DNA from: a virus
Strand: one strand, 5' to 3'
Virus record (IMG/VR): IMGVR_UViG_3300045988_090449
DNA length: 37,757 nt
Shown: positions 1 through 37,757 of the stretch, in pieces
How positions within the stretch are numbered: position 1 is the first letter of the stretch
Layout: every line of letters starts with the position of its first letter
Position numbers and translations under genes: made by a program
The notes under the pieces: generated by a model
The model's database searches: none
Seen by the model: only the letters and a program-made list of their open reading frames with translations
What the model was told of the DNA's origin: nothing

Positions 1-141
1 AGCCATATAAAACAACTGTTATTAAAAATAAACAAAAAAATATTTTTAAGCATAGTTGTTCTTATGCAAGTCTTGTGCCTATTATTCATAGACCTGATGC
101 GGTAAGACCTTTTGGTAGAAGTAGGATCACAAAAGCTTGTG
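1..141. repeat. Terminal overlap copy 1 (identical to 37617..37757)
   Basis: Base-by-base comparison shows 141/141 identity. It lies inside the portal reading frame, so it is an assembly/circularisation overlap rather than a biological terminal repeat. Confidence 0.95.
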
Positions 142-755
142 AGTATCATCAAACTTATGCTAAAAGAACTCTTGTGAGATCAGATATAACTGCTGAATTC
201 TATTCATTCCCACAAAAATACATTTTAGGAATGAGTTCAGAAGCTGAGCAATGGGATAACTGGAAGGCGACTATATCTAGTATGTTAAGAATTGATAAGG
301 ACAGTGATGGTGATAAGCCGGTTGTTGGTCAATTCACAACACCAAGTATGAGTCCATTTACTGAACAGTTAAGAACTGCTGCAGCAGGTTTTGCTGGAGA
401 GTCTGGTTTGACTTTGGACGATTTGGGATTTGTTTCTGATAATCCAAGCTCTAGCGATGCTATTAAAGCAAGTCATGAGACTTTAAGAGTTATGGGTAAA
501 AAAGCTCAGCGATGTTTTAGTAGTGGTTTTTTAAATGTTGGATATGTTGCTAGTAGTATGAGGGATGAATTCGATTATGAGAGAAGTCAATTCTACAAAG
601 CTACAGTAAAATGGGATCCTGTATTTGAATCCGATGCATCTACTTTGAATTTGGTCGGTGACGGATTGATTAAATTAAACCAAGCTATTCCAGGATTTGC
701 AGATAGTGAGACTGTTAGAAAACTTACAGGATTAGAGGGAAAAGATAATGGATAA
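1..755 (+). CDS. Portal protein, C-terminal part (continuation of 37082..37757)
   Basis: In-frame continuation (codons start at position 3). The motif HRPDAVRPFGRSRIT is typical of SPP1 gp6-type portals. Lies immediately upstream of the MuF-like gene. Confidence 0.85.
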   Translation, partial: PYKTTVIKNKQKNIFKHSCSYASLVPIIHRPDAVRPFGRSRITKACEYHQTYAKRTLVRSDITAEFYSFPQKYILGMSSEAEQWDNWKATISSMLRIDKDSDGDKPVVGQFTTPSMSPFTEQLRTAAAGFAGESGLTLDDLGFVSDNPSSSDAIKASHETLRVMGKKAQRCFSSGFLNVGYVASSMRDEFDYERSQFYKATVKWDPVFESDASTLNLVGDGLIKLNQAIPGFADSETVRKLTGLEGKDNG

Positions 756-1983
756 GGATATAGTCCCTGATTTGTTAGATTTGATTGAAAAATCATTTCA
801 GAATAAATTTAAAAAAGATGAAAAGATAAAAAAACTTGAAACTCTTTTATTCGAAAAGAAAAGTAATCATATGAGCTCTAATGAATACGCTATGAGGTTA
901 GGTGATATTTTATCTGAGTGTTATCTGGAAAATATATCAGAAGGGATACTTCCTAATGATACTATGTATTATAATATTGCTAAGCGAATAATAGAGCCTA
1001 CATTGAGAAAAAACTATGAATTGGTATCAACGTATGCCTCAGACACTCAAACGAGTTTAAACAGGCAAGCTGGCTTAAATATTAAGGGTTTAAAACCAGA
1101 GATTAATCAAGACAGAATTGACGGTATTATAAACAGAGTTAGCGAGGACAAATTTGACAAAACAAAATGGGTGTTAAAAGAACCTATAGCAAATTTCACT
1201 CAAGCTGTTGTTGATGATACAGTTAAAACTAATGCAGAATTTCATAGTAATTTGGGTCTATCTCCAAAAATTGTAAGAAAAGAACACGGAAATTGCTGCG
1301 ATTGGTGTAAAAAGCTAGTTGGATCACATGAATATTATGATGTTAGCAATTCTGGAAATGATGTGTTCAGACGTCATAGGCATTGTAGATGCACTGTGGA
1401 GTATGTTCCGGATAAAAAAAGTAGACAAAACGTGCATACTAAAAGAAAGCGTAATTCTAATTTTAGTAACCAAAGAATTAAAAAAGCACAAGAATTACAG
1501 GATATCAGAGCGTTAAACAGACACGAGGATTCATTGCAGTACAAACAATATATTTCTGTGTTAGGAAAAGATAAAATGCCCAAATCTTTAAGCGCATTTC
1601 AAAAACTGAAATATGAAAATATCGAAGAATATGAGAAACTAAAAGACCATGTGTTTATTCAAAATAATTTCAATAAAGGTATATGGAAAGATAAGGTTAA
1701 TTTTGATAAACAGAAAAGGCATATGCAATCAACTGCTGGGGGAAATAAAAGTTATTTTTATGATGACATAGATATAGAAAAGTTGTATAATGAGTATAAG
1801 ATGACAGGTTATATTGAAAAAGACAGAAACGGCAAGAGAAAAAGTACAGAAAAAATTACGTTAAATGAAAAAAAAGAATTAGGGATAGATTTTTATACCA
1901 AGCGATCAATAAATGCTATGACTATACATTATGGCAAAACAGGTGTTCACTTAGTTCCTACATTTTTTGATACAGGAGAATAA
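748..1983 (+). CDS. Minor head / head morphogenesis protein (SPP1 gp7 / Mu F-like) with a ~190-aa C-terminal extension resembling MuF-linked polymorphic toxin modules
   Basis: CCDWC...HRHCRC Cys/His motif (aa 183-215) is typical of gp7/MuF proteins. Position is directly after the portal gene. The C-terminus carries KQKRH ... IHYGKTGVHLVP (aa 321-404). Confidence 0.8.
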   Translation: MDKDIVPDLLDLIEKSFQNKFKKDEKIKKLETLLFEKKSNHMSSNEYAMRLGDILSECYLENISEGILPNDTMYYNIAKRIIEPTLRKNYELVSTYASDTQTSLNRQAGLNIKGLKPEINQDRIDGIINRVSEDKFDKTKWVLKEPIANFTQAVVDDTVKTNAEFHSNLGLSPKIVRKEHGNCCDWCKKLVGSHEYYDVSNSGNDVFRRHRHCRCTVEYVPDKKSRQNVHTKRKRNSNFSNQRIKKAQELQDIRALNRHEDSLQYKQYISVLGKDKMPKSLSAFQKLKYENIEEYEKLKDHVFIQNNFNKGIWKDKVNFDKQKRHMQSTAGGNKSYFYDDIDIEKLYNEYKMTGYIEKDRNGKRKSTEKITLNEKKELGIDFYTKRSINAMTIHYGKTGVHLVPTFFDTGE

Positions 1984-1985
1984 AT

Positions 1986-2174
1986 ATGTTACAAAAATAC
2001 AATAATAAATTAGTTAAAATAACAGATATAGATAATCAGATGTTTTCCGGAAGGTGTCTATATGAAAATAGAGAAGACTTTGAAGAGGAATTTGATGGAT
2101 TATCAGTAAAAACAGATAGTGGTTGGATTAAACTACTTGAAAATGAAATCAAATCGATAGAAATATTAGACTAA
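1986..2174 (+). CDS. Small acidic protein (62 aa), candidate immunity protein for the MuF C-terminal domain
   Basis: AGGAGA Shine-Dalgarno 7 nt upstream of the ATG. Starts 2 nt after the MuF stop. Acidic, with no TM segment. The function is inferred from position only. Confidence 0.4.
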   Translation: MLQKYNNKLVKITDIDNQMFSGRCLYENREDFEEEFDGLSVKTDSGWIKLLENEIKSIEILD

Positions 2175-2177
2175 TTA

Positions 2178-2223
2178 AGCACACTAACTAATTACGACTG
2201 TAATAGATTAGAGGTGCTTTTTT
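2178..2223 (+). terminator. Candidate intrinsic terminator (long imperfect stem AGCAC...GTGCT followed by T6)
   Basis: 5-bp GC-containing outer stem with interrupted inner pairing, followed by TTTTTT. The structure is imperfect. Confidence 0.3.
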
Positions 2224-2246
2224 AGTGCAAAAATTTAGGAGGGGTA

Positions 2247-3644
2247 ATGACAAGACTTGGTAATCAAAATCCAACAACAGCTGTTTTATTGCCCTACGAA
2301 AAAACATACGGAGATTGTGCCATTGAATGGTACGAAAAATCTGGGAGAAAGGCTCAGCAATGGCAGAAAAACTTAATTAATCATATATTGGCTATTAATG
2401 ATGATGGCTTATGGACTCATACAAAATTTGGTTTTTCTCTTCCACGTCGTAATGGTAAAAATGAGGTTGTTCTTATTCGTGAGTTATATGGTCTCTTAAA
2501 AGGTGAGGAAATGCTCCATACAGCACATAGAACTAATACATCACATACCGCTTGGGAGAGAATTATTAAAGTGCTGGAGTCTATGGGTTATGTCAATGAT
2601 GAAAATTTTACAACTTTAAAAGCTAAAGGAAATGAAGAGATAAGATTTGTTGACGGCGGTGTTTTAAAGTTTAGAACAAGAACATCAACAGGTGGTCTTG
2701 GTGAAGGATATGATCTACTTGTTATTGATGAGGCTCAAGAATACACCGATGACCAACAATCTGCTCTTAAATACGTGGTTACTTCTAGTAAAAATCCACA
2801 GACGGTGTTTATAGGAACACCACCAACTACAGTATCAGCCGGTACTGTTTTTTTAAATATGAGAAACAATGCTATCGATGGTGGTAGTAAAAACACAGGC
2901 TGGGCTGAGTGGGGAATTAATGAAGAATCAGATGTTAACGACGTAGAGCTTTGGTATAAGACAAATCCATCACTTGGTACGATATTTACTGAAAGAAGTA
3001 TTGAGGATGAAATTGGTACGGATGATTTAGACTTTAATATTCAGCGTTTAGGTTTATGGATTAGATATAACCAAAAATCAGCAATTACTCAAAAAGACTG
3101 GGATTCTGTTATGGCTCCAAGTTTACCTGTTCTTACTGGTAAGATTAATGTCGGAATTAAGTATGGTAATGATGGCAAAAATGTAGCTATGGCTATTGCT
3201 ATAAAGACATTATCGGGTAAAATCTTCGTTGAAGCTATTGATTGTAGGAGCATTCGTATCGGCAATGGTTGGATTATTAATTTTTTAAGACAAATCGATT
3301 ATGAAAATGTCGTTATAGATGGTGCTAGTGGACAAGAGATTTTGAAAAAGGAAATGGATAGTTTCAAGCTTATTAAACCTATTTTGCCTACGGTTTCAGA
3401 GATTATTGTTGCAAACTCAAAATGGGAGCAAGCAATATTTACAAAAACAATATTGCACAAGGATCAAGCTAGTTTAACTGATGTTGTGACTAATTGTTTG
3501 AAGAGAAATATTGGTAGTCATGGCGGATTTGGGTATAAGTCGCAGTTTGAAGAAAATGATATTTCCTTAATGGATGCGTGTATTTTAGCACATTGGATAT
3601 GTAGTGAAAAAACAGAAAAGAAAAAACAGAAAGTTTGGTGTTAG
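2247..3644 (+). CDS. terL: Terminase large subunit
   Basis: Walker A-like PRRNGKNE and Walker B LLVIDEAQE. C-terminal nuclease-type region (ISLMDACILAHW). GGAGGGG SD upstream of the start. Confidence 0.8.
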   Translation: MTRLGNQNPTTAVLLPYEKTYGDCAIEWYEKSGRKAQQWQKNLINHILAINDDGLWTHTKFGFSLPRRNGKNEVVLIRELYGLLKGEEMLHTAHRTNTSHTAWERIIKVLESMGYVNDENFTTLKAKGNEEIRFVDGGVLKFRTRTSTGGLGEGYDLLVIDEAQEYTDDQQSALKYVVTSSKNPQTVFIGTPPTTVSAGTVFLNMRNNAIDGGSKNTGWAEWGINEESDVNDVELWYKTNPSLGTIFTERSIEDEIGTDDLDFNIQRLGLWIRYNQKSAITQKDWDSVMAPSLPVLTGKINVGIKYGNDGKNVAMAIAIKTLSGKIFVEAIDCRSIRIGNGWIINFLRQIDYENVVIDGASGQEILKKEMDSFKLIKPILPTVSEIIVANSKWEQAIFTKTILHKDQASLTDVVTNCLKRNIGSHGGFGYKSQFEENDISLMDACILAHWICSEKTEKKKQKVWC

Positions 3645-3670
3645 TAGTCTACTATTGTAGGCTATTTTTT
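3645..3670 (+). terminator. Rho-independent terminator after terL
   Basis: TAGTCTAC-TATT-GTAGGCTA forms an 8-bp stem (one G.U pair) followed by TTTTTT. Confidence 0.6.
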
Positions 3671-3721
3671 AATACAAATTTCCTCGTAAGAGAGGCTAAA
3701 TCGAGAAAGGAGAATTGGATA

Positions 3722-4195
3722 ATGGGAGAATTTAAACCTATTACAACTCAAGAAGAGTTTAATTCTGCAATTGCAGAAAGACTCAACAGACAAAAAGAAA
3801 GCATTTTGAAAGATTATAGTGACTATGATGATTTAAAAAAAGAAAATGAGTCACTAAAGCATGAGTTATCAGATACTAAGTCTGTATTAGAAAAAAACAA
3901 ACTAAATTCTGATGAGTTCAACTCAAGGATTGAAGAATTACAAGGAAAGATTAATTCTTACGAACTAAAGAATTTAAAAACGGACATAGCCTTAAAAAAT
4001 GGCATTCCATACGAGTTGGCCGGTAGACTTGTAGGAGATACAGAAGAGGATTTGATGGAAGATGCAAAAAATTTATCAAATATGCTAGTAAGAAATGAAC
4101 CTGTAGCGCCACTTGCAAGTGTGGAACCTATAATCGATGATGAGGATTCAGCTTACAGGAATTTAGTTAGAAATTTAGATTTACAAGGAGAGTAA
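3722..4195 (+). CDS. Capsid scaffolding protein (DUF4355-like)
   Basis: ATG at 3722 with AAAGGAGAA SD; the ORF-track start at 3635 is an upstream extension. Charged coiled-coil protein directly upstream of the major capsid gene. Confidence 0.7.
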   Translation: MGEFKPITTQEEFNSAIAERLNRQKESILKDYSDYDDLKKENESLKHELSDTKSVLEKNKLNSDEFNSRIEELQGKINSYELKNLKTDIALKNGIPYELAGRLVGDTEEDLMEDAKNLSNMLVRNEPVAPLASVEPIIDDEDSAYRNLVRNLDLQGE

Positions 4196-4196
4196 A

Positions 4197-5087
4197 ATGG
4201 GAAAAACAGAATTACAAAGAGGAGAATTATTCCAACCACAATTAGTAAAAGATTTAATCAATAAGGTTAAGGGAAAATCGTCAATTGCACAAGTTTCAGG
4301 TCAAACTCCAATTCCATTTAATGGATTGAAAGAATTTACTTTCACTATGGATAATGAGATTGATGTTGTAGCTGAAAATGGAAGGAAATCACACGGTGGT
4401 ATATCTTTAGATTCTATAAAGATTGTTCCAATTAAGGTTGAATATGGTGCTAGAATTACAGATGAGTTCATGTATGCATCAGAAGAAGAAAGAATCAATA
4501 TATTAAAGGCATTTAATGATGGATTCGCAAAAAAACTTGCTAAGGGTTTGGATTTAATGGCTATGCACGGTATTAATCCTAGAACTGGACAAGCTTCTAC
4601 TGTTATTGGGGCAAATCACTTTGATGCAGCAGTAAGCCAAAAAGTTGTATATGATGAGGCAAATGTTGAGGATAATATCGAAACTGCTATTGGGTTAGTT
4701 CAAGGTAGTGAAGCTGATGTGTCAGCAATGATTGTTGCTCCACAAGTAACTACTGCATTATCAAAAATAAAAGTAAATGGTGTTAGACAATATCCTGAAT
4801 TGCGTTTCGGAGCAAATCCTGGCAACTTGAATGGGTTAAAAATTGACATTAATAAGACTGTTAATTCTAAACCATCAAAAGATGTTGCAATCCTAGGAGA
4901 CTTTGCTGGATCATTTAAATGGGGTTATTCAAAACAAATTCCACTTGAAGTTATTCAATATGGTGATCCAGATAACTCAGGTCGTGACTTAAAAGGATAT
5001 AACCAAGTTTATTTAAGAGCTGAAACTTATTTAGGATGGGGAATCTTAGATGCTTCTGCATTTTCTAGAATTGAGGCTGCTGAATAA
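4197..5087 (+). CDS. Major capsid protein (HK97-fold type)
   Basis: 296 aa. Position after the scaffold gene. N-terminal LFQPQLVKDLINKV and overall composition are typical of Firmicutes siphovirus major capsid proteins. Confidence 0.75.
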   Translation: MGKTELQRGELFQPQLVKDLINKVKGKSSIAQVSGQTPIPFNGLKEFTFTMDNEIDVVAENGRKSHGGISLDSIKIVPIKVEYGARITDEFMYASEEERINILKAFNDGFAKKLAKGLDLMAMHGINPRTGQASTVIGANHFDAAVSQKVVYDEANVEDNIETAIGLVQGSEADVSAMIVAPQVTTALSKIKVNGVRQYPELRFGANPGNLNGLKIDINKTVNSKPSKDVAILGDFAGSFKWGYSKQIPLEVIQYGDPDNSGRDLKGYNQVYLRAETYLGWGILDASAFSRIEAAE

Positions 5088-5359
5088 TGATATTAATTAA
5101 CACTAAAACAGGAGGAGTGTTAAGCTCCTCTTCTGTTGCTATGGGAGGATTTTGGGTAGAAAAAGGAAAAGAAATCACTCAAGAAAAGAATGAAGAAATG
5201 ATTGAAACAAAATCTGACCAAACAGAAAATCAAACAGAAAATCAAGATGATAAATCGACGATTACAAAAAAAGATATCATGCAGGAGCTAGATGCACTTA
5301 AGATTGAATACGACTCTAAGATGACAAAAGATGAGTTATTAAAATTACTTCAAGGGTAA
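5087..5359 (+). CDS. Small head-associated protein with C-terminal HeH/Rho-N-like motif
   Basis: The motif TKKDIMQELDALKIEYDSKMTKDELLKLL resembles HeH/SAP-like helix-extended-helix modules that are common after capsid genes. Confidence 0.45.
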   Translation: MILINTKTGGVLSSSSVAMGGFWVEKGKEITQEKNEEMIETKSDQTENQTENQDDKSTITKKDIMQELDALKIEYDSKMTKDELLKLLQG

Positions 5360-9836: not shown

Positions 9837-11572
9837 TGTTTTTTTATAATGGTACTGATTTTAGGGATTTGATTATTGTAGAAAATATAGAGCGCCCCGT
9901 TCTATCTTCTACTGAGAACAAATTGAATCCTTATATTGTGTTCAATGGATCAGATTTTATTAGCAGCAGAAGACAAGAAGCGAAATTCAAGATTACTTTT
10001 AGTTATGTTCAAGAAAACTTGAATACAATTAGAAGAGTTCTTGCTCAATTTTTAGGAACTGAAGAATTATCGGAATTATACTTTTATGATGATCCAGATA
10101 TTATTTACTACGCAAAGGTTGATGGAGAAATAAAATCTTCTGAATACAAGGCTAATAATTACACTAAAGGATATGGGAAAGGCGAACTAACTTTTATCAT
10201 TCCATCTGCTTGTGGATATAAGAGAGAGCCTGTGGAGCTGTCACAAGCCAATGCTAAGAGTATTATGTGTGAAAACAAGGGTACGGATAAGACGTATCCT
10301 ATTTTTGATTTCACATGTCATGGCAAGGTTACAATGATTGGTGTGACTAGTAAATACGGCAGTTTCCAATTTGGGGATAGTAAGGAGTTTGCACCAATTA
10401 AGCAGATGAAGATCCACAAAGAGCAAACTAGTAGTTTGTTCAAGAGTGGCAAGGGGACTTTAACTATTATTGATAGGGTTATGAAAACTAGCGACGGTTG
10501 GGATATTGTGGATGCATCTAAACTTGTAGCTGATAGTGATTTTGATGGGAAGGTGTCTAATACTACTACATCAAGTCCAAAGACTTCTAATGGGACTGTT
10601 ACTGTGTCAAAGAACGCAAGGTATTGGGACAATGGAGTGAGGATTGCTAATTGGGTAAAAGGTAAGTCTTTTAAATTTGATAAGACAAAGGCTGTGAATA
10701 AGTCAAAATCAAAGAAGGCATACAGACTTAAAGACAAAGAGGGATATCTTGGTTGGTTGCTTGAAGAAGATATTCAAGGTCAAAGCCAAAGTACTGTGAC
10801 TGGTGTCTATCCTTTTTGGAATAGCTCAAGTTTAAAGACGTTCTCAACACTACCTTTGCATCGCAAGGTGACTAACAATGCGACTGATTGGGAAATGACT
10901 TTCAAATTCAATTACAAAGCAAGTCCTGGACAATTTGGTTTTATGACATTTGGCATAACTGATAAGAATCAAAACATGATTGGTGGTATGAGAATTGAAA
11001 CTATAAACGGTGATGGAAGAATGGCAATGGTGTGCTTGTGTGGTAGTGATGGTAAACTTCACACTGGATACAACAAAGCTGACTGGACAGGTGCTGTAAC
11101 TATTACTAAAAGAGGTGCTATGGTTACATACTACATGTATAATCAGTTGAATGGTAAAAGCTACACTTATAGGCTAATGAATGCTGAGATTGATGATGTA
11201 GTGGCTAGTGATGTTTATGTGTTATGCACTAAGAAGAACAACTACGACTTTATTCAAGCTTGTAATCCAATGCACATGACTATTACTGGTTATGATGCAG
11301 ATATTTATGTTGAGAATAAAAGCAAGGAAGAGTTTTCTATGATTAATGTAGCCATTCCTAGGTTTAACTTCAACGATGGCGACACTGTGAGAATCGATAT
11401 GAATACTGGATTTTGTTATCACAATGGGCACAGATGTTTGATGCCAATTGCGTTTGGCTCGAGACCTACACCGATTTATCCAGGGACAGAGGAGATAGTG
11501 ATAACTACTGAGGGAGAGTTTGGTTCATTCGTTGATTGTGATGTAAGTTACAGAGAGGTGTTTAAATGTTAA
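9836..11572 (+). CDS. Distal tail protein (Dit), enlarged 'evolved' form with internal insertion
   Basis: Position after the tape measure gene with an ATGT overlap. N-terminal Dit-like region. 578 aa against ~250-300 for a minimal Dit. Has an internal basic SH3b/GW-like segment (aa ~255-315, nt ~10598..10780). Confidence 0.65.
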   Translation: MFFYNGTDFRDLIIVENIERPVLSSTENKLNPYIVFNGSDFISSRRQEAKFKITFSYVQENLNTIRRVLAQFLGTEELSELYFYDDPDIIYYAKVDGEIKSSEYKANNYTKGYGKGELTFIIPSACGYKREPVELSQANAKSIMCENKGTDKTYPIFDFTCHGKVTMIGVTSKYGSFQFGDSKEFAPIKQMKIHKEQTSSLFKSGKGTLTIIDRVMKTSDGWDIVDASKLVADSDFDGKVSNTTTSSPKTSNGTVTVSKNARYWDNGVRIANWVKGKSFKFDKTKAVNKSKSKKAYRLKDKEGYLGWLLEEDIQGQSQSTVTGVYPFWNSSSLKTFSTLPLHRKVTNNATDWEMTFKFNYKASPGQFGFMTFGITDKNQNMIGGMRIETINGDGRMAMVCLCGSDGKLHTGYNKADWTGAVTITKRGAMVTYYMYNQLNGKSYTYRLMNAEIDDVVASDVYVLCTKKNNYDFIQACNPMHMTITGYDADIYVENKSKEEFSMINVAIPRFNFNDGDTVRIDMNTGFCYHNGHRCLMPIAFGSRPTPIYPGTEEIVITTEGEFGSFVDCDVSYREVFKC

Positions 11573-14500
11573 TAGTAACAGATAGAAATCTACAAACACT
11601 GACAATAGTTAGTAATGATTATCCTGATGGCGTACATTTTCAAGATGATAAGTTCAACGAAGACCTGGAAACTGGAACTTGTATGCTTACTTGCAGTATT
11701 GACAAGGTTGTTGAAAAGGATGTTGAACTTATAGAAGCTGGCTGTCTGGTTGTAGCTACTGGATATAAGAAAAAGCCTGTTTTACTTGAGATTACAGAAG
11801 TTGTTGAGAATAGATACTCAAAAGAAATAGTCGCAGAAGATTGCGGACTTGATTTGCTTAATGAAGATATCGCGGAGCAAGATTTCAAAGGAACACTTGC
11901 AGAATGGGTCAACAATACTCTTGGTGAAAAATCAGACTGGGTTGTTGGAATTAATGAGGCCAAGGATAAAAACTTAGCTTTTAAATTTGATGGAACAACG
12001 ACTAAGACTAAGAGACTTGCTATGATTGCAGGTCGTTTCGGTTGTGAGATTAGCTATGATGTTAAATTAAATGGTAATGCAATAGATAAAAAGGTCATTA
12101 ACTTTTATAAGAAACGTGGCAAAGAGACTGGGTATAGGCTTGAGTTCGGGCGTGATTTAAGTGATGTTAAGCGTACTGTATCAATTGCGGACTTGTGTAC
12201 TGCTGTAAGAGCTGTAGGTAAACCTCACAAGGAGCAAATCAGAGAAGTAAAGCAAGTTGAAATCGAAGAAGATAAAAAGAAACCTGCACCAAATAGCAAG
12301 ATTGAGTTATTCGTAAAATGGATGAAATCGCGTGAAGGTAAGGTCAGATATTCACAAGCTAGACGTGAAGGTCCTAACTATTATGACTGCTCAAGTTCTG
12401 TGAGTAGCGCGGCAAAATTTGCAGGACTGTTTCCAAAATCTGTGGGACTTCCAACAACTGGGACATTATGGGCTTGGGGAAATGCTGGAACGTATTTTCA
12501 TCAAATCAATCAATCAGAAATTCAGTACGGAGACATATTCGTATCAAGACACAATAACAAGGGTCATACTGGTGTAATATTAGATAAAAACACGATAATA
12601 CACTGCACATTGTATGGATCAATCAATGGGATTGTAACGACTAAGCTAAAAGGCTGGACTGGTCCAAATGTTAGGTTCTACAGATGGAATGAAAACAAAG
12701 GTGGAACTATAGTTGATGCTACTAAAAAGACATACTGGACTAATTCTGATGTTACAAAACACGATTTGGGTAAGAGATTGCAAGGAATAACTGCGACTCA
12801 AATAAATAACTGGATAAGAGCAAAAGCACCTAACAGTCCTTTTAATGGACAAGGTCAAGTATTCATAGAAGCACAAAGTCAATCTGGATTAGATGCAAGA
12901 TATATATTAGCTCATGCAGCACTAGAAAGTGCGTGGGGCAGCAGTAGGATTGCAAGAACATATCATAACTACTTCGGCATTAATGCTTATGATAGTAATC
13001 CTGATAATGCTAAGAAAAGCAGTAACAGGAGTTTACAAGCAGGTATTATCAATGGTGCTGTGTGGATAAAAGAACACTACTATAACCGCGGACAAAAGAC
13101 GTTGTATGCTATGAATCATGATAAAAATGGACATAACTATGCTAGTGATAAGGCATGGGGAGATAAGATTGCTAATATCATGAAAGGTTCTGAACGATTC
13201 ACAAATCCTGGCGCTACTGCTTCTAGTACAGAGCAAGTATTGTACAAAGAACATGAAGTTAACACGGATTTGGTTGGATACAAGTATGATGATGGAAGAT
13301 TCTATGTTACTGATGATGGTCTGATTTGCGATAGAGAAGCAGCTAAGAAGTGGACTAGATTCAATAAAACAGGTCAAAAATATTTCATAAGAATGTATGA
13401 TAGTGAGGCTACTAGTCAAAAGACGTTGTTTGATGAGGGATTGAGGTTCTTAAAAAACAACAATGAGGCCAAGATTAGCTATGAGGTATCACTGAGACAA
13501 CTTCCAGGTGAGCTTGAAATTGGGGACTACATCAGAATTATAGACCACGGATTTAAGCCGGCGTTGTACTTATCCGCTAGACTTGTGGATATTACAAGGA
13601 GCTTGTGTGATGAGCTTAGCAACTCTGCTATATTTGCAAACTTCGAAGAAGAAAAGGCAGGTATTTCTGAAAGACTTCTAAGTCTTGAAAAATCTGTGTA
13701 TAGTAGTAGGTTTAATTGGCAAAATGTACCGTTTGAGATGACTTTGAGTTCAAGCCAAGGTAATGTGTTCAAAGATGGTGTGCTGTCAACGGAAATCACC
13801 GCTATTGTAACTAAAGCAGGTGTGGATCAAACTGCTACGATTGATAAGTTTGTATGGGAAAGAGTGTCAGAATACCAGGACAAGATTACTACGAGTGATG
13901 ATGATTGGAACAAATCAAAAGAGGGCTCAACGGGTAATATTCTTGGGATAAATAATTCTGATGTGGATTTACAAGCGACTTTTACATGTTCTGCGATGTT
14001 GAATGATGTTGCTGTGGCTACAAGTTTTATAACTATCAAGGATTTAACGATAGGGATATATAAGCAAGAAAAAGAGCCTGATAGACAACTTTTAAGTTGG
14101 GGCGATGTGTGGCAGTGGGACGATGGCAAAGGTACTCACTTCAAGAGATTATGGAAAGGCGATAGATGGGAAGATACTATCACTAAAAGGGACTTGGAGA
14201 TATTGGAGTTTGCTCCAGGTCCTCCAGGAAAAGATGGTGAAAATGGTATGCCTGGTAAAGACGGCAAAGACGGAAGAACTTCGTACGTACACTTCGCTTA
14301 TGCTGATAGTGCAGACGGGACTGTTGGCTTCACAAGAACTGCTACAACGAACAAAAAGTATATAGGTTTTTATACGGATTTTGAAAAAGCTGACTCCACA
14401 GATCCAAAAAAGTACGAATGGTCAAAGTATGTTGGAGATGACGGAAAACCAGGAAAAGATGGTGAAAATGGAATACCAGGGAAAGCAGGAGCGGACGGAA

Positions 14501-15213
14501 AGACCCCATATTTCCACACAGCTTGGAGCAACAGTGCTGACGGTAGTAAGGATTTTAGTACAAGTCAAGCAGGAGAAAAGGCATATATTGGAACTTATAC
14601 GGACTATGTGAAAGAAGATTCAACAGATCCAACGAAGTATACTTGGATGTTTGTAAAAGGAGAGAAAGGTGATCCTGCTGATACATCCGGGATAAAAAAA
14701 GATATCAATGCGATTAAATCTGAGCTTGAAAATAAAGCCGATTCACAAACTGTAACTGACATCGAGTCGAGGCAACAAGCCGTTGAGGTTTTGATTAGTC
14801 AGAAAGCAGACAAGGACAGTATAACTAAGAGCTTTGTTGAGATAGAAAAGACTAAGGCATACGCAGATACTCTGAAAAAAGCGTTGGAGAATGAGAGTTT
14901 ATCACTTCAAGATAGGATTAAGATTATCGAGGAGAATGTCGGGGCTGGTAAGTTTACAATCGAAGCTATAACGACGTATTTTGATTTCGGTGAGGAAGGT
15001 ATTCTCATCGGTAAAAAAGACGAAGCGGTGAAGATGATTCTTAAAAACAATGCTCTTGAAATTATAGACGGAACTAAGACTGTAGCAAGATTTGCTAATT
15101 CACAAGTTCAAGTTCCTAACCTAAAAGTAGACGGGGTATTGGAGTTCGGATATCACATGGTAACAAAGTACGATAATGGTACTAACAAATACACGATTAT
15201 TAAACCAATATAG
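11566..15213 (+). CDS. Tail-associated lysin (Tal / prophage tail endopeptidase) with NlpC/P60 and glucosaminidase domains and collagen-like repeats
   Basis: Position after Dit.
- NlpC/P60-type Cys/His motifs: YDCSSSV, GHTGVIL, IIHC (nt ~12298..12690).
- Glucosaminidase motif: GLDARYILAHAALESAWGSS...YHNYFGINAYD (nt ~12778..13200).
- G-X-Y runs at aa 884-903 and 958-979. Confidence 0.8.
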   Translation: MLIVTDRNLQTLTIVSNDYPDGVHFQDDKFNEDLETGTCMLTCSIDKVVEKDVELIEAGCLVVATGYKKKPVLLEITEVVENRYSKEIVAEDCGLDLLNEDIAEQDFKGTLAEWVNNTLGEKSDWVVGINEAKDKNLAFKFDGTTTKTKRLAMIAGRFGCEISYDVKLNGNAIDKKVINFYKKRGKETGYRLEFGRDLSDVKRTVSIADLCTAVRAVGKPHKEQIREVKQVEIEEDKKKPAPNSKIELFVKWMKSREGKVRYSQARREGPNYYDCSSSVSSAAKFAGLFPKSVGLPTTGTLWAWGNAGTYFHQINQSEIQYGDIFVSRHNNKGHTGVILDKNTIIHCTLYGSINGIVTTKLKGWTGPNVRFYRWNENKGGTIVDATKKTYWTNSDVTKHDLGKRLQGITATQINNWIRAKAPNSPFNGQGQVFIEAQSQSGLDARYILAHAALESAWGSSRIARTYHNYFGINAYDSNPDNAKKSSNRSLQAGIINGAVWIKEHYYNRGQKTLYAMNHDKNGHNYASDKAWGDKIANIMKGSERFTNPGATASSTEQVLYKEHEVNTDLVGYKYDDGRFYVTDDGLICDREAAKKWTRFNKTGQKYFIRMYDSEATSQKTLFDEGLRFLKNNNEAKISYEVSLRQLPGELEIGDYIRIIDHGFKPALYLSARLVDITRSLCDELSNSAIFANFEEEKAGISERLLSLEKSVYSSRFNWQNVPFEMTLSSSQGNVFKDGVLSTEITAIVTKAGVDQTATIDKFVWERVSEYQDKITTSDDDWNKSKEGSTGNILGINNSDVDLQATFTCSAMLNDVAVATSFITIKDLTIGIYKQEKEPDRQLLSWGDVWQWDDGKGTHFKRLWKGDRWEDTITKRDLEILEFAPGPPGKDGENGMPGKDGKDGRTSYVHFAYADSADGTVGFTRTATTNKKYIGFYTDFEKADSTDPKKYEWSKYVGDDGKPGKDGENGIPGKAGADGKTPYFHTAWSNSADGSKDFSTSQAGEKAYIGTYTDYVKEDSTDPTKYTWMFVKGEKGDPADTSGIKKDINAIKSELENKADSQTVTDIESRQQAVEVLISQKADKDSITKSFVEIEKTKAYADTLKKALENESLSLQDRIKIIEENVGAGKFTIEAITTYFDFGEEGILIGKKDEAVKMILKNNALEIIDGTKTVARFANSQVQVPNLKVDGVLEFGYHMVTKYDNGTNKYTIIKPI
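14215..14673 (+). repeat. Tandem ~75-aa module duplication inside Tal (collagen-like G-X-Y run plus conserved beta-rich domain)
   Basis: GPPGKDGENGMPGKDGKDGRTSYVHFAYADSADG...KYIGFYTD..DSTDPKKYEW aligns with GKPGKDGENGIPGKAGADGKTPYFHTAWSNSADG...AYIGTYTD..DSTDPTKYTW. A 23-nt identical DNA stretch, ccaggaaaagatggtgaaaatgg, occurs twice. Confidence 0.85.
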
Positions 15214-25226: not shown

Positions 25227-25255
25227 ATTATATACGATATAACGTTATATTTCAA
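25227..25255 (-). promoter_or_regulatory. Leftward (lysogenic) promoter TTGAAA-17-TATAAT
   Basis: On the minus strand: TTGAAA (plus-strand 25250..25255), an exact 17-nt spacer, then TATAAT (25227..25232). Located ~20 nt upstream of the repressor ATG. Confidence 0.6.
25232..25250. promoter_or_regulatory. Operator-like palindrome in the leftward promoter spacer
   Basis: ATATAACGTTATAT (25237..25250) is a perfect 14-bp palindrome. The overlapping ATACG-N6-CGTTAT resembles the second operator. Confidence 0.5.
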
Positions 25256-37081: not shown

Positions 37082-37757
37082 ATGGAACAATTAGTTTCTC
37101 AAAATTATGAAATTAACAAAGATATTGTTAAGAAATACGAAGACACTCAATCGGGAATTGATTATCTACGTAAAAAATTAAAACTATACCAACCGAGAGT
37201 TGTTGAGAGATATCTTAGGTATGATATGAAAAAAGAAGACTATGATAGAGGGATTATGATAAGTAATGATTTAAAAAGACAATACAAAGCTGTATTAGGG
37301 TGGTGTTCAAAAGCTGTCGATTGTCTAGCTGATAGACTTGTGTTTAAAGGCTTCGACAATGATCCATTCGATATGAACAGTATTTTTAACATGAATAATC
37401 CCGATGTGTTCTTCGATAGTGCTATTCTTAATGCTTTGATCGCTTCATGTTCTTTTGTCTATGTATCAAAAGACGATGTTGGTGATATTAGATTGCAGGT
37501 TATAGATGCTGCGAATGCGACAGGTATTATTGATCCCGTAACAGGTTTGCTAAAAGAAGGCTACGCTATTTTACAGAAAGATAAAGAAGGTCACGCGATT
37601 ACTGAGGCTTATTTTGAGCCATATAAAACAACTGTTATTAAAAATAAACAAAAAAATATTTTTAAGCATAGTTGTTCTTATGCAAGTCTTGTGCCTATTA
37701 TTCATAGACCTGATGCGGTAAGACCTTTTGGTAGAAGTAGGATCACAAAAGCTTGTG
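37082..37757 (+). CDS. Portal protein, N-terminal part (SPP1 gp6-like); ORF runs off the window end and continues at 1..755
   Basis: ATG at 37082 preceded by AAAGGAAG. Open frame with no stop to the window end. The frame is continuous through the 141-bp overlap into 3..755. The joined gene is 1290 nt (429 aa). Confidence 0.85.
   Translation, partial: MEQLVSQNYEINKDIVKKYEDTQSGIDYLRKKLKLYQPRVVERYLRYDMKKEDYDRGIMISNDLKRQYKAVLGWCSKAVDCLADRLVFKGFDNDPFDMNSIFNMNNPDVFFDSAILNALIASCSFVYVSKDDVGDIRLQVIDAANATGIIDPVTGLLKEGYAILQKDKEGHAITEAYFEPYKTTVIKNKQKNIFKHSCSYASLVPIIHRPDAVRPFGRSRITKAC
37617..37757. repeat. Terminal overlap copy 2 (identical to 1..141)
   Basis: Same as copy 1. Confidence 0.95.

Follow-up and report, generated by a model that had tools for sequence, protein, structure and literature searches.

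A MuF-borne Ntox50 toxin and its candidate Sm-like immunity protein, encoded among the head genes of a temperate Finegoldia magna phage

The viral record IMGVR_UViG_3300045988_090449 of IMG/VR encodes a minor head protein of 411 amino acids (aa) that extends far beyond its head-protein core, and the gene is followed directly by an open reading frame (ORF) of only 62 aa. This raises the question of what the extension does and what the small ORF is for. The whole stretch of DNA analysed, 37,757 nucleotides (nt) in length, is referred to here as the window. The original prediction had read the pair as a gp7/MuF head protein carrying a toxin-like C-terminal domain behind a basic linker, with the acidic small ORF as candidate immunity protein; both ORFs and all the motifs quoted for them are found where they had been placed (Table 1). 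We consider it highly likely that the region is a MuF polymorphic toxin-immunity cassette which a temperate SM1-like cos siphophage of Finegoldia magna carries in its head module, and that it works in the way proposed below.

The toxin-like nature of the C-terminal domain was confirmed by a match to the Pfam family Ntox50 (PF15542) at aa 318–404 (nt 1699–1959; E = 2.9e-17, 63.6 bits), which covers positions 2–92 of the 92-position profile and lies well above its gathering cut-off of 22.2 bits. The original prediction had named the class 'toxin type 50' and proposed a profile hidden Markov model search, which bore it out. Ntox50 was described as a predicted ribonuclease (RNase) of the BECR fold with conserved H, S, K, T, H, K and HxVP residues and with MuF among its carriers (Zhang et al. 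2012, PMC3482391). All of these signature residues are present in the window protein (H325, S328/K334-S335, T392-I-H394, K397 and H401-L-V-P404), with KQKRH at aa 321–325 and MTIHYGKTGVHLVP at aa 391–404, and none of the 30 distinct homologues, drawn from several genera, departs from H325, H401 or P404. The domain is basic, with an isoelectric point (pI) of 9.3. Judged by its residues, it is an Ntox50 domain that looks catalytically intact; searches of NCBIfam and PADLOC gave no match for the 411-aa protein.

The sole relatives of this domain with solved structures are two demonstrated RNase toxins. MafB2-CT of Neisseria meningitidis B16B6 (8HHJ) was the top and sole credible match when an AlphaFold2 (AF2) model of aa 290–411 was compared with the Protein Data Bank (PDB) by Foldseek (8hhj_B, probability 0.99, E = 0.034, 27% identity), with a template modelling (TM) score of only 0.38–0.44 from a query model of low confidence. 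H335, H402 and H409 of MafB2, a non-specific RNase, are required for toxicity (PMC9970974) and are equivalent to H325, H394 and H401 of the window protein, the two sharing the motif TIH.GK.GVH.VP. The second relative, YxiD-CTD of Bacillus subtilis 6633 (PDB 9V8I), was reached by a profile search with the toxin domain (9v8i_B, E = 0.014); it belongs to PF15542 and is a metal-dependent tRNA-cleaving RNase inactivated by H528A (PMC12700104). Since a reverse primer in the supplement of the YxiD paper encodes ...AHIVPSRP (PMC12700104), H528 is the conserved HxVP histidine, equivalent to H401. By analogy, the window domain is probably an RNase, possibly one that cleaves tRNA; the metal-dependent activity on tRNA was demonstrated for YxiD and would apply to the window toxin only by this likeness. 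The carriers differ: YxiD is an LXG protein of the type VII secretion system type and MafB2 is a Gram-negative toxin secreted through the Maf system, whereas the window toxin is carried by a phage MuF protein.

The carrier could be assigned as well. PHROG 2494 ('minor head protein') spans the whole 411-aa protein (E = 4.5e-117), and gp35 of the Streptococcus mitis phage SM1 shares 41% identity with it over aa 1–302 (tblastn, E = 1e-68). Among MuF toxins, the MuF3 subfamily was defined with the first 250 aa of SM1 gp35 as its seed (Jamet et al. 2017, PMC5576092), so the proposed gp7/MuF head protein, whose gene follows that of the portal, can be specified as having a MuF3 core. This core contains the Cys/His motifs CCDWC (aa 183–187, nt 1294–1308) and HRHCRC (aa 210–215, nt 1375–1392). 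The classical Pfam MuF models (PF04233 Phage_Mu_F and PF06152) did not match the 411-aa protein at E<=1, and VG15 (PF25310) gave only a sub-threshold match at aa 115–227. The absence of a Pfam MuF match is expected, since MuF3 was given its own profile precisely because the Pfam models miss its members (PMC5576092). At the protein level, 99 phage records matched, nearly all of them Streptococcus and Lactococcus prophages; 21 of these (Streptococcus prophages) matched over the full length with 40–46% identity, and many others, SM1 gp35 included, align over aa 1–~300 only. Homology between the Ntox50-type and SM1-type proteins stops exactly past ...YE.LKD, at aa ~300 in the alignment with SM1 gp35, which marks a recombination junction. 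It lies at the end of the linker, which is indeed basic and contains SLSAFQKLKY at aa 280–289, and within which orphan Ntox50 fragments have their start.

Table 1. Features of the toxin-immunity locus and its flanks, with positions in the window
Feature	Position (nt)	Strand	Basis or remark
Portal gene, C-terminal part	1..755	+	PHROG 104 portal, E = 5.5e-61
MuF3::Ntox50 polymorphic toxin gene, 411 aa	748..1983	+	ORF; PHROG 2494; Pfam Ntox50
MuF3 head-protein core, aa 1–230	748..1437	+	Alignment with SM1 gp35; sub-threshold VG15
Basic linker / pre-toxin region, aa 231–300	1438..1647	+	pI 9.8; ends ...SLSAFQKLKYENIEEYEKLKD
C-terminal toxin cassette, aa 301–411	1648..1980	+	PF15542; homologue conservation; Foldseek; profile search
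Putative catalytic residues H325, H394 and H401-L-V-P404	1720–1722, 1927–1929 and 1948–1959	+	Ntox50 signature
Sigma-70-like ATGACA-17-TATAAT, candidate internal promoter only	1763..1791	+	11/12 matches, in toxin coding sequence
Shine-Dalgarno AGGAGA of the small ORF	1974..1979	+	Within final toxin codons, 6 nt before ATG
62-aa acidic Sm-like protein, candidate cognate immunity	1986..2174	+	PHROG 1865; AF2; co-variation
Acidic loop NREDFEEEFD, aa 28–37	2067–2096	+	Between predicted β2 (aa 19–27) and β3 (aa 38–43)
Hairpin and U-run, terminator-like	2170..2226	+	ΔG -19.7 kcal/mol, z = -4.7, 0/200 shuffles equally stable
terL, large terminase gene (context, outside the module)	2247..3644	+	PHROG 9, E = 1.6e-71

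The 62-aa protein is acidic (pI 4.48, net charge -6), opposite in charge to the toxin domain. Its ATG follows the toxin stop codon (TAA, 1981–1983) after a gap of 2 nt, and the Shine-Dalgarno sequence noticed earlier is its own; with this spacing the small ORF appears to be translationally coupled to the toxin gene. PHROG 1865, labelled 'unknown function', matched the ORF with E = 1.9e-19, while Pfam, NCBIfam and PADLOC gave no match. This is a small family, restricted to the Firmicutes, with 21 clusters at 50% identity in an exhaustive phmmer search and 135 clusters at 90% identity in a profile search, and its members are named 'hypothetical' or 'LSM domain protein'. Word-indexed single-sequence protein searches returned only near-identical Finegoldia proteins or short fragments, the wider family being reached by the profile and phmmer. 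A match in a 2585-aa protein (P0034), an RTX/VCBS adhesin, was discarded as a repeat/compositional artefact.

The AF2 model of the 62-aa protein (predicted local distance difference test, pLDDT, 96.9) has one short helix and five strands. Foldseek placed it in the Sm/LSm/Hfq fold, with Gemin6, the Hfq proteins of M. jannaschii and B. subtilis, and YaeO/Rof as neighbours (TM-scores 0.7–0.79), and acidity of the loop between β2 and β3 is a feature of the whole family. The proven immunity protein of YxiD, YxxD, is likewise Sm-like, and its acidic β2-β3 loop (D33–D46) enters the basic active site of the toxin; its published structural neighbours are YaeO (6JIE), Hfq (3HSB) and Lsm (PMC12700104). 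The two proteins are thus alike in being small acidic Sm-like barrels with an acidic β2-β3 loop and the same structural neighbours, each encoded directly downstream of its toxin, but YxxD is larger (110 aa, with two helices and six strands). We suggest by analogy that the 62-aa protein works like YxxD, which does not imply membership in the YxxD family. In the MafB2 system, MafI2 blocks MafB2-CT by occupying its basic RNA groove through charge complementarity (PMC9970974); MafI2 has an α/β (CzrB-like) fold instead of an Sm-like one.

To compare cassettes and their downstream genes, 90 MuF3 loci (80 viral contigs, three phage records, six genomes and the window) were assembled, and the residues past the MuF core and the first downstream ORF were clustered separately; toxin and 62-aa protein were each represented by 30 distinct sequences. 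The Ntox50 cassette was followed by the 62-aa family in 50 of 51 loci, the single exception having a small ORF of similar sequence pattern, and the SM1-type cassette was followed by Cys_rich_CPCC (CPCC) proteins (PF14206) in all of its 21 loci. Eight of the nine other cassette types (13 loci) each had a private partner, one of them with two, whereas the ninth (CT9, one locus, with a weak CdiA_C match) was followed directly by terL. Thus 11 cassette types occur on MuF3 cores, ten of them with a private small ORF. MuF proteins without an extension were found in three loci, followed by terL in one and by no called ORF in two. The 62-aa family followed none (0/39) of the MuF genes with another cassette or with no cassette. 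The other MuF3 C-termini include CdiA_C-like (L119, 1193..2404), Gln_amidase / papain-fold toxin 1 (L133, 3001..4362) and peptidase-M91-like (L126, 3001..4605) domains. In L119, the CT9 locus, which has no small ORF before terL, any immunity gene would lie elsewhere.

Prophages in decay have kept the pair as well, in Peptoniphilus, Helcococcus, Ligilactobacillus and Sharpea. In Helcococcus bovis the MuF gene is broken into three ORFs and the pair is retained, and in one database ORF (P0044) the toxin end '...MTIHYSKTGVH' runs directly into the immunity sequence. In Peptoniphilus sp. KCTC 25270 (L134, 4926..5940) all that is left of the prophage is the MuF linker with Ntox50 (188–213 aa), the homologue of the immunity gene and the start of terL (~25 codons); this remnant directly adjoins a long CRISPR array and the cas1/cas2 genes.

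Members of the 62-aa family are found apart from any toxin as well. At 44 chromosomal loci of mitis-group streptococci (within L005–L053), at two or more chromosomal sites, a 62-aa homologue lies directly 3' of one to three CPCC genes of the SM1 gp36 type, forming arrays of same-strand small genes (e.g. L043, 2905..4201, and L013, 3280..4210), sometimes with a 77-aa paralogue in addition. No Ntox50 or SM1-type toxin remnant was found within ±4 kb of these arrays in any reading frame. The arrays thereby bring together the immunity types that belong to the two commonest MuF3 cassettes, and one protein (P0027) fuses the 62-aa family to a CPCC domain. On F. magna chromosome/metagenome contigs (L139/L140, 4001..4225) a 74-aa paralogue shares an island of small ORFs with a DUF4926 gene; DUF4926 has been proposed as the immunity partner of another MuF-borne BECR toxin, BECR-Tox3/DUF6883 (bioRxiv 10.64898/2026.08.28.747851). 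A large SIR2_2 protein is encoded near the 74-aa paralogue in L140.

Because the small ORF co-varies with the cassette, occurs in toxin-less arrays beside other immunity-type genes and is predicted to form an Sm-like fold with an acidic loop, the 62-aa protein is very probably the antidote of the Ntox50 toxin. The earlier suggestion of an immunity protein is thereby backed by evidence from both gene neighbourhoods and modelling.

We propose that the system would operate as follows: i) the MuF3 core docks the 411-aa protein in the capsid at the portal, as for MuF proteins of the SPP1 gp7 type, ii) the final ~110 residues, by analogy with their solved relatives, may act as an Ntox50 (BECR / RNase-A-like) ribonuclease, iii) the coupled 62-aa protein would be co-produced and bind the basic RNA-binding cleft 1:1, most likely through the inserted acidic β2-β3 loop, blocking access of RNA, so that the producing cell and lysogens would be protected, iv) a few toxin copies may be packaged at the portal and enter the next cell with the DNA, as suggested by SPP1 gp7 and StB12 proteomics (PMC5576092, PMC12226406), and v) RNA of the recipient, probably tRNA, would be cleaved unless a cognate immunity gene is present. 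The pay-off may lie in interbacterial competition, in kin discrimination between lysogens or in host takeover.

Several points weigh against this proposal. The toxin-domain model has a pLDDT of 61.6, and the putative catalytic residue H394 is variable, being K in OlisA2. Many of the 90 loci are closely related, so that 50/51 overstates the number of independent events; the cassette/partner pattern is nevertheless qualitatively unambiguous. No sequence link between the 62-aa family and PDB chains was found by single sequence or by profile, and the family profile run against all PDB sequences (including 9V8I) gave no YxxD match at E<=10; the Sm fold common to the two proteins may be convergent, and the binding mode is taken over by analogy. 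No LXG, Maf or Rhs toxin was found beside family members in Geobacillus, Ligilactobacillus, Sharpea or Finegoldia, their partners there being only MuF3 carriers, toxin fragments or none (orphans). That the extension is packaged and injected is an assumption drawn from SPP1 gp7 and the StB12 proteomics cited in PMC5576092, and no experiments on any MuF::Ntox50 protein were found in the searchable literature.

The variability of H394 and the low-confidence model would also suit a domain that has decayed into a non-catalytic Ntox50 remnant with a purely structural role in the head. We regard this as very improbable, as the full Pfam profile is covered, H325 and HxVP do not vary among the 30 distinct sequences, which come from several genera, and the partner gene is strictly retained. 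Equally little credence is given to the idea that the 62-aa ORF encodes no immunity protein but an RNA-binding regulator of the Hfq/Sm type or a small accessory to packaging, e.g. a substitute for terS. Its fold does resemble Hfq, LSm and Gemin6, its OlisA2 homologue is annotated 'gemin6', some UniRef members are called 'LSM domain protein', and no terS is recognisable anywhere in the window of this cos/HNH-type phage (including 36090..37083 and 2175..2246). Its acidity is nevertheless unlike that of RNA-binding Sm proteins, and the Sm-like YxxD is a proven Ntox50 immunity protein (PMC12700104). Moreover, the family accompanies only Ntox50 MuF genes, with unrelated small proteins after other cassettes and none after MuF genes without an extension, and it survives beside toxin fragments in decayed prophages that lack packaging genes. 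Toxin-less chromosomal arrays, and fusions to proteins of the CPCC immunity type, are features that immunity genes typically show and therefore argue against a role in RNA regulation or packaging. The candidacy of the small ORF as terS in particular was rejected on its co-variation and fold.

A different purpose for the same molecules has more in its favour, and we consider it possible though rather unlikely. The virion-delivered RNase could be a host-takeover or counter-defence effector in the style of a 'polyvalent protein', acting on host or rival-phage RNA early in infection, with the small protein only shielding the producer during assembly. MuF-fused BECR effectors are discussed as phage effectors (Iyer 2017); the gene lies in the late head module, not in the position of a moron expressed in lysogeny, and a terminator-like hairpin closes the unit. 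Against this, the toxin-less chromosomal immunity arrays suggest that bacteria gain from immunity, so that the toxin would harm recipients; the sequence itself favours neither purpose. The polymorphic toxin-immunity reading, which builds on the domain identities, the conservation of catalytic residues, the fold of the small protein, the co-variation and the temperate context established here, is the one that we prefer.

The window is a circular phage contig of ~37.6 kb, its ends (1..141 and 37617..37757) forming a direct overlap of 141 nt. The portal gene spans the contig junction (start 37084, end 755) and overlaps the MuF start by 8 nt. Genes are arranged in the order HNH endonuclease, portal, MuF::toxin, small ORF, terL, scaffold and major capsid, and the same head-module order is found in SM1, Javan118 and OlisA2. 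The remainder encodes a complete temperate siphophage, including scaffold, major capsid, connectors, major tail, tape measure, Dit, Tal (which has lysin domains) and endolysin. There are also a replication module and genes for an ArpU-like regulator and an HNH protein, while an ImmA-like protease and a serine integrase (E = 1.3e-98) are encoded on the minus strand. That the phage is temperate is indicated by the serine integrase and by the presence of the same genes in F. magna chromosomes. The host was assigned as F. magna because the near-identical copies of the 62-aa protein come from this species. In a megablast search of nt 1–4200 against 50,697 phage records no match was obtained, relatives being detectable at the protein level only.

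The original prediction had also stated that the pair separates portal and MuF from terL. This is literally true, but the insertion that it implied is unsupported. The order portal-MuF-terL is kept also where MuF has no extension and terL comes directly, and portal-MuF-(small ORFs)-terL is the conserved layout of the whole SM1-like lineage, not a product of the cassette. An insertion that displaced terL is thus rejected, and the cassette, standing in an order typical of its lineage, does not split the packaging module. The Streptococcus relatives have an additional, variable ORF between the immunity gene and terL, drawn from three unrelated PHROGs whose function is unassigned, whereas the window has no such ORF.

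Two further ORFs on the plus strand deserve mention. A 1215-aa tail protein (11566..15213; Tal / host-specificity) contains embedded lysin and amidase-like segments, with PHROG matches to endolysin and tail-associated lysin at aa ~245–566. Between the genes for the major capsid and the head-tail adaptor lies a 90-aa ORF (5087..5359) with matches to PHROGs that bear the label 'Arc-like repressor' (E = 1.3e-11), which is odd for a gene of the head module; the ORF at this position in OlisA2 is annotated as a HeH/LEM domain protein.

As to regulatory signals, the terminator-like hairpin comes directly after the stop codon of the immunity gene, so that the portal-MuF-immunity unit is closed ahead of terL. 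It was not called by a simple terminator scan, its loop and stem being interrupted, and it stands inside a presumed late operon. The sigma-70-like site within the toxin gene is located 195 nt upstream of the immunity start. As a promoter of the immunity gene it was not upheld: sites with at least 11 of 12 matches are not enriched in the window (3 observed vs 1.9 expected), and this one is not conserved in the Streptococcus relatives. Another such site, at 25227..25255 on the minus strand, is ahead of lysogeny-module genes.

With respect to known systems, the MuF3 prototype SM1 gp35/gp36 is among the closest. SM1 and the window have in common a homologous MuF3 domain and linker up to ...LKD, a temperate siphophage with the MuF gene after the portal, a swappable toxin cassette followed by a small ORF, and the order HNH-cos-portal-MuF-small ORF-terL; SM1, however, carries another cassette with a CPCC-type partner. 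In contrast to the described MuF3 phages, the window comes from a Finegoldia host (Peptoniphilaceae) instead of Streptococcus, with ~45% identity to the nearest of them. The only MuF toxins studied experimentally are those of the Apk2 type, (p)ppApp synthetases of S. pneumoniae prophages with the immunity proteins IapK/Aph1 (PMC12226406). They resemble the window system in having a MuF N-terminus, a toxic C-terminus, downstream immunity gene(s) and a temperate phage, but their activity (nucleotide pyrophosphokinase) and immunity proteins are unrelated to those of the window.

The kind of system is therefore not new. Ntox50 was listed explicitly among the MuF toxin domains, MuF toxins with Ntox50 having been catalogued in 2012 and 2017 (PMC3482391, PMC5576092), and the structure of an Ntox50 toxin and Sm-like immunity protein pair was determined in 2025; how polymorphic toxins are currently understood is not altered by the locus. 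What is new is the host genus and a minimal 62-aa immunity protein of a family without a curated model. With F. magna, a Gram-positive anaerobe of clinical relevance, as its host, the locus provides a clean pair of MuF::Ntox50 and Sm-like immunity protein, and a probable function for PHROG 1865, for which neither Pfam nor NCBIfam has a model. It further suggests that neutralization in the style of YxxD, in which an Sm barrel presents an acidic loop, has a second instance in a protein of far smaller size.

The orphan arrays of the mitis-group streptococci are the by-product most worth pursuing; they could help explain why temperate phages carry MuF toxins. Tentatively, PHROG 1865 might be an unrecognised minimal Sm-fold immunity family for phage-borne Ntox50, of which mitis-group streptococci (44 loci) and F. 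magna stockpile toxin-less arrays against phage-injected toxins. If this is true, MuF toxins and orphan immunity genes would form part of an arms race between phages and their hosts, beyond warfare among bacteria alone.

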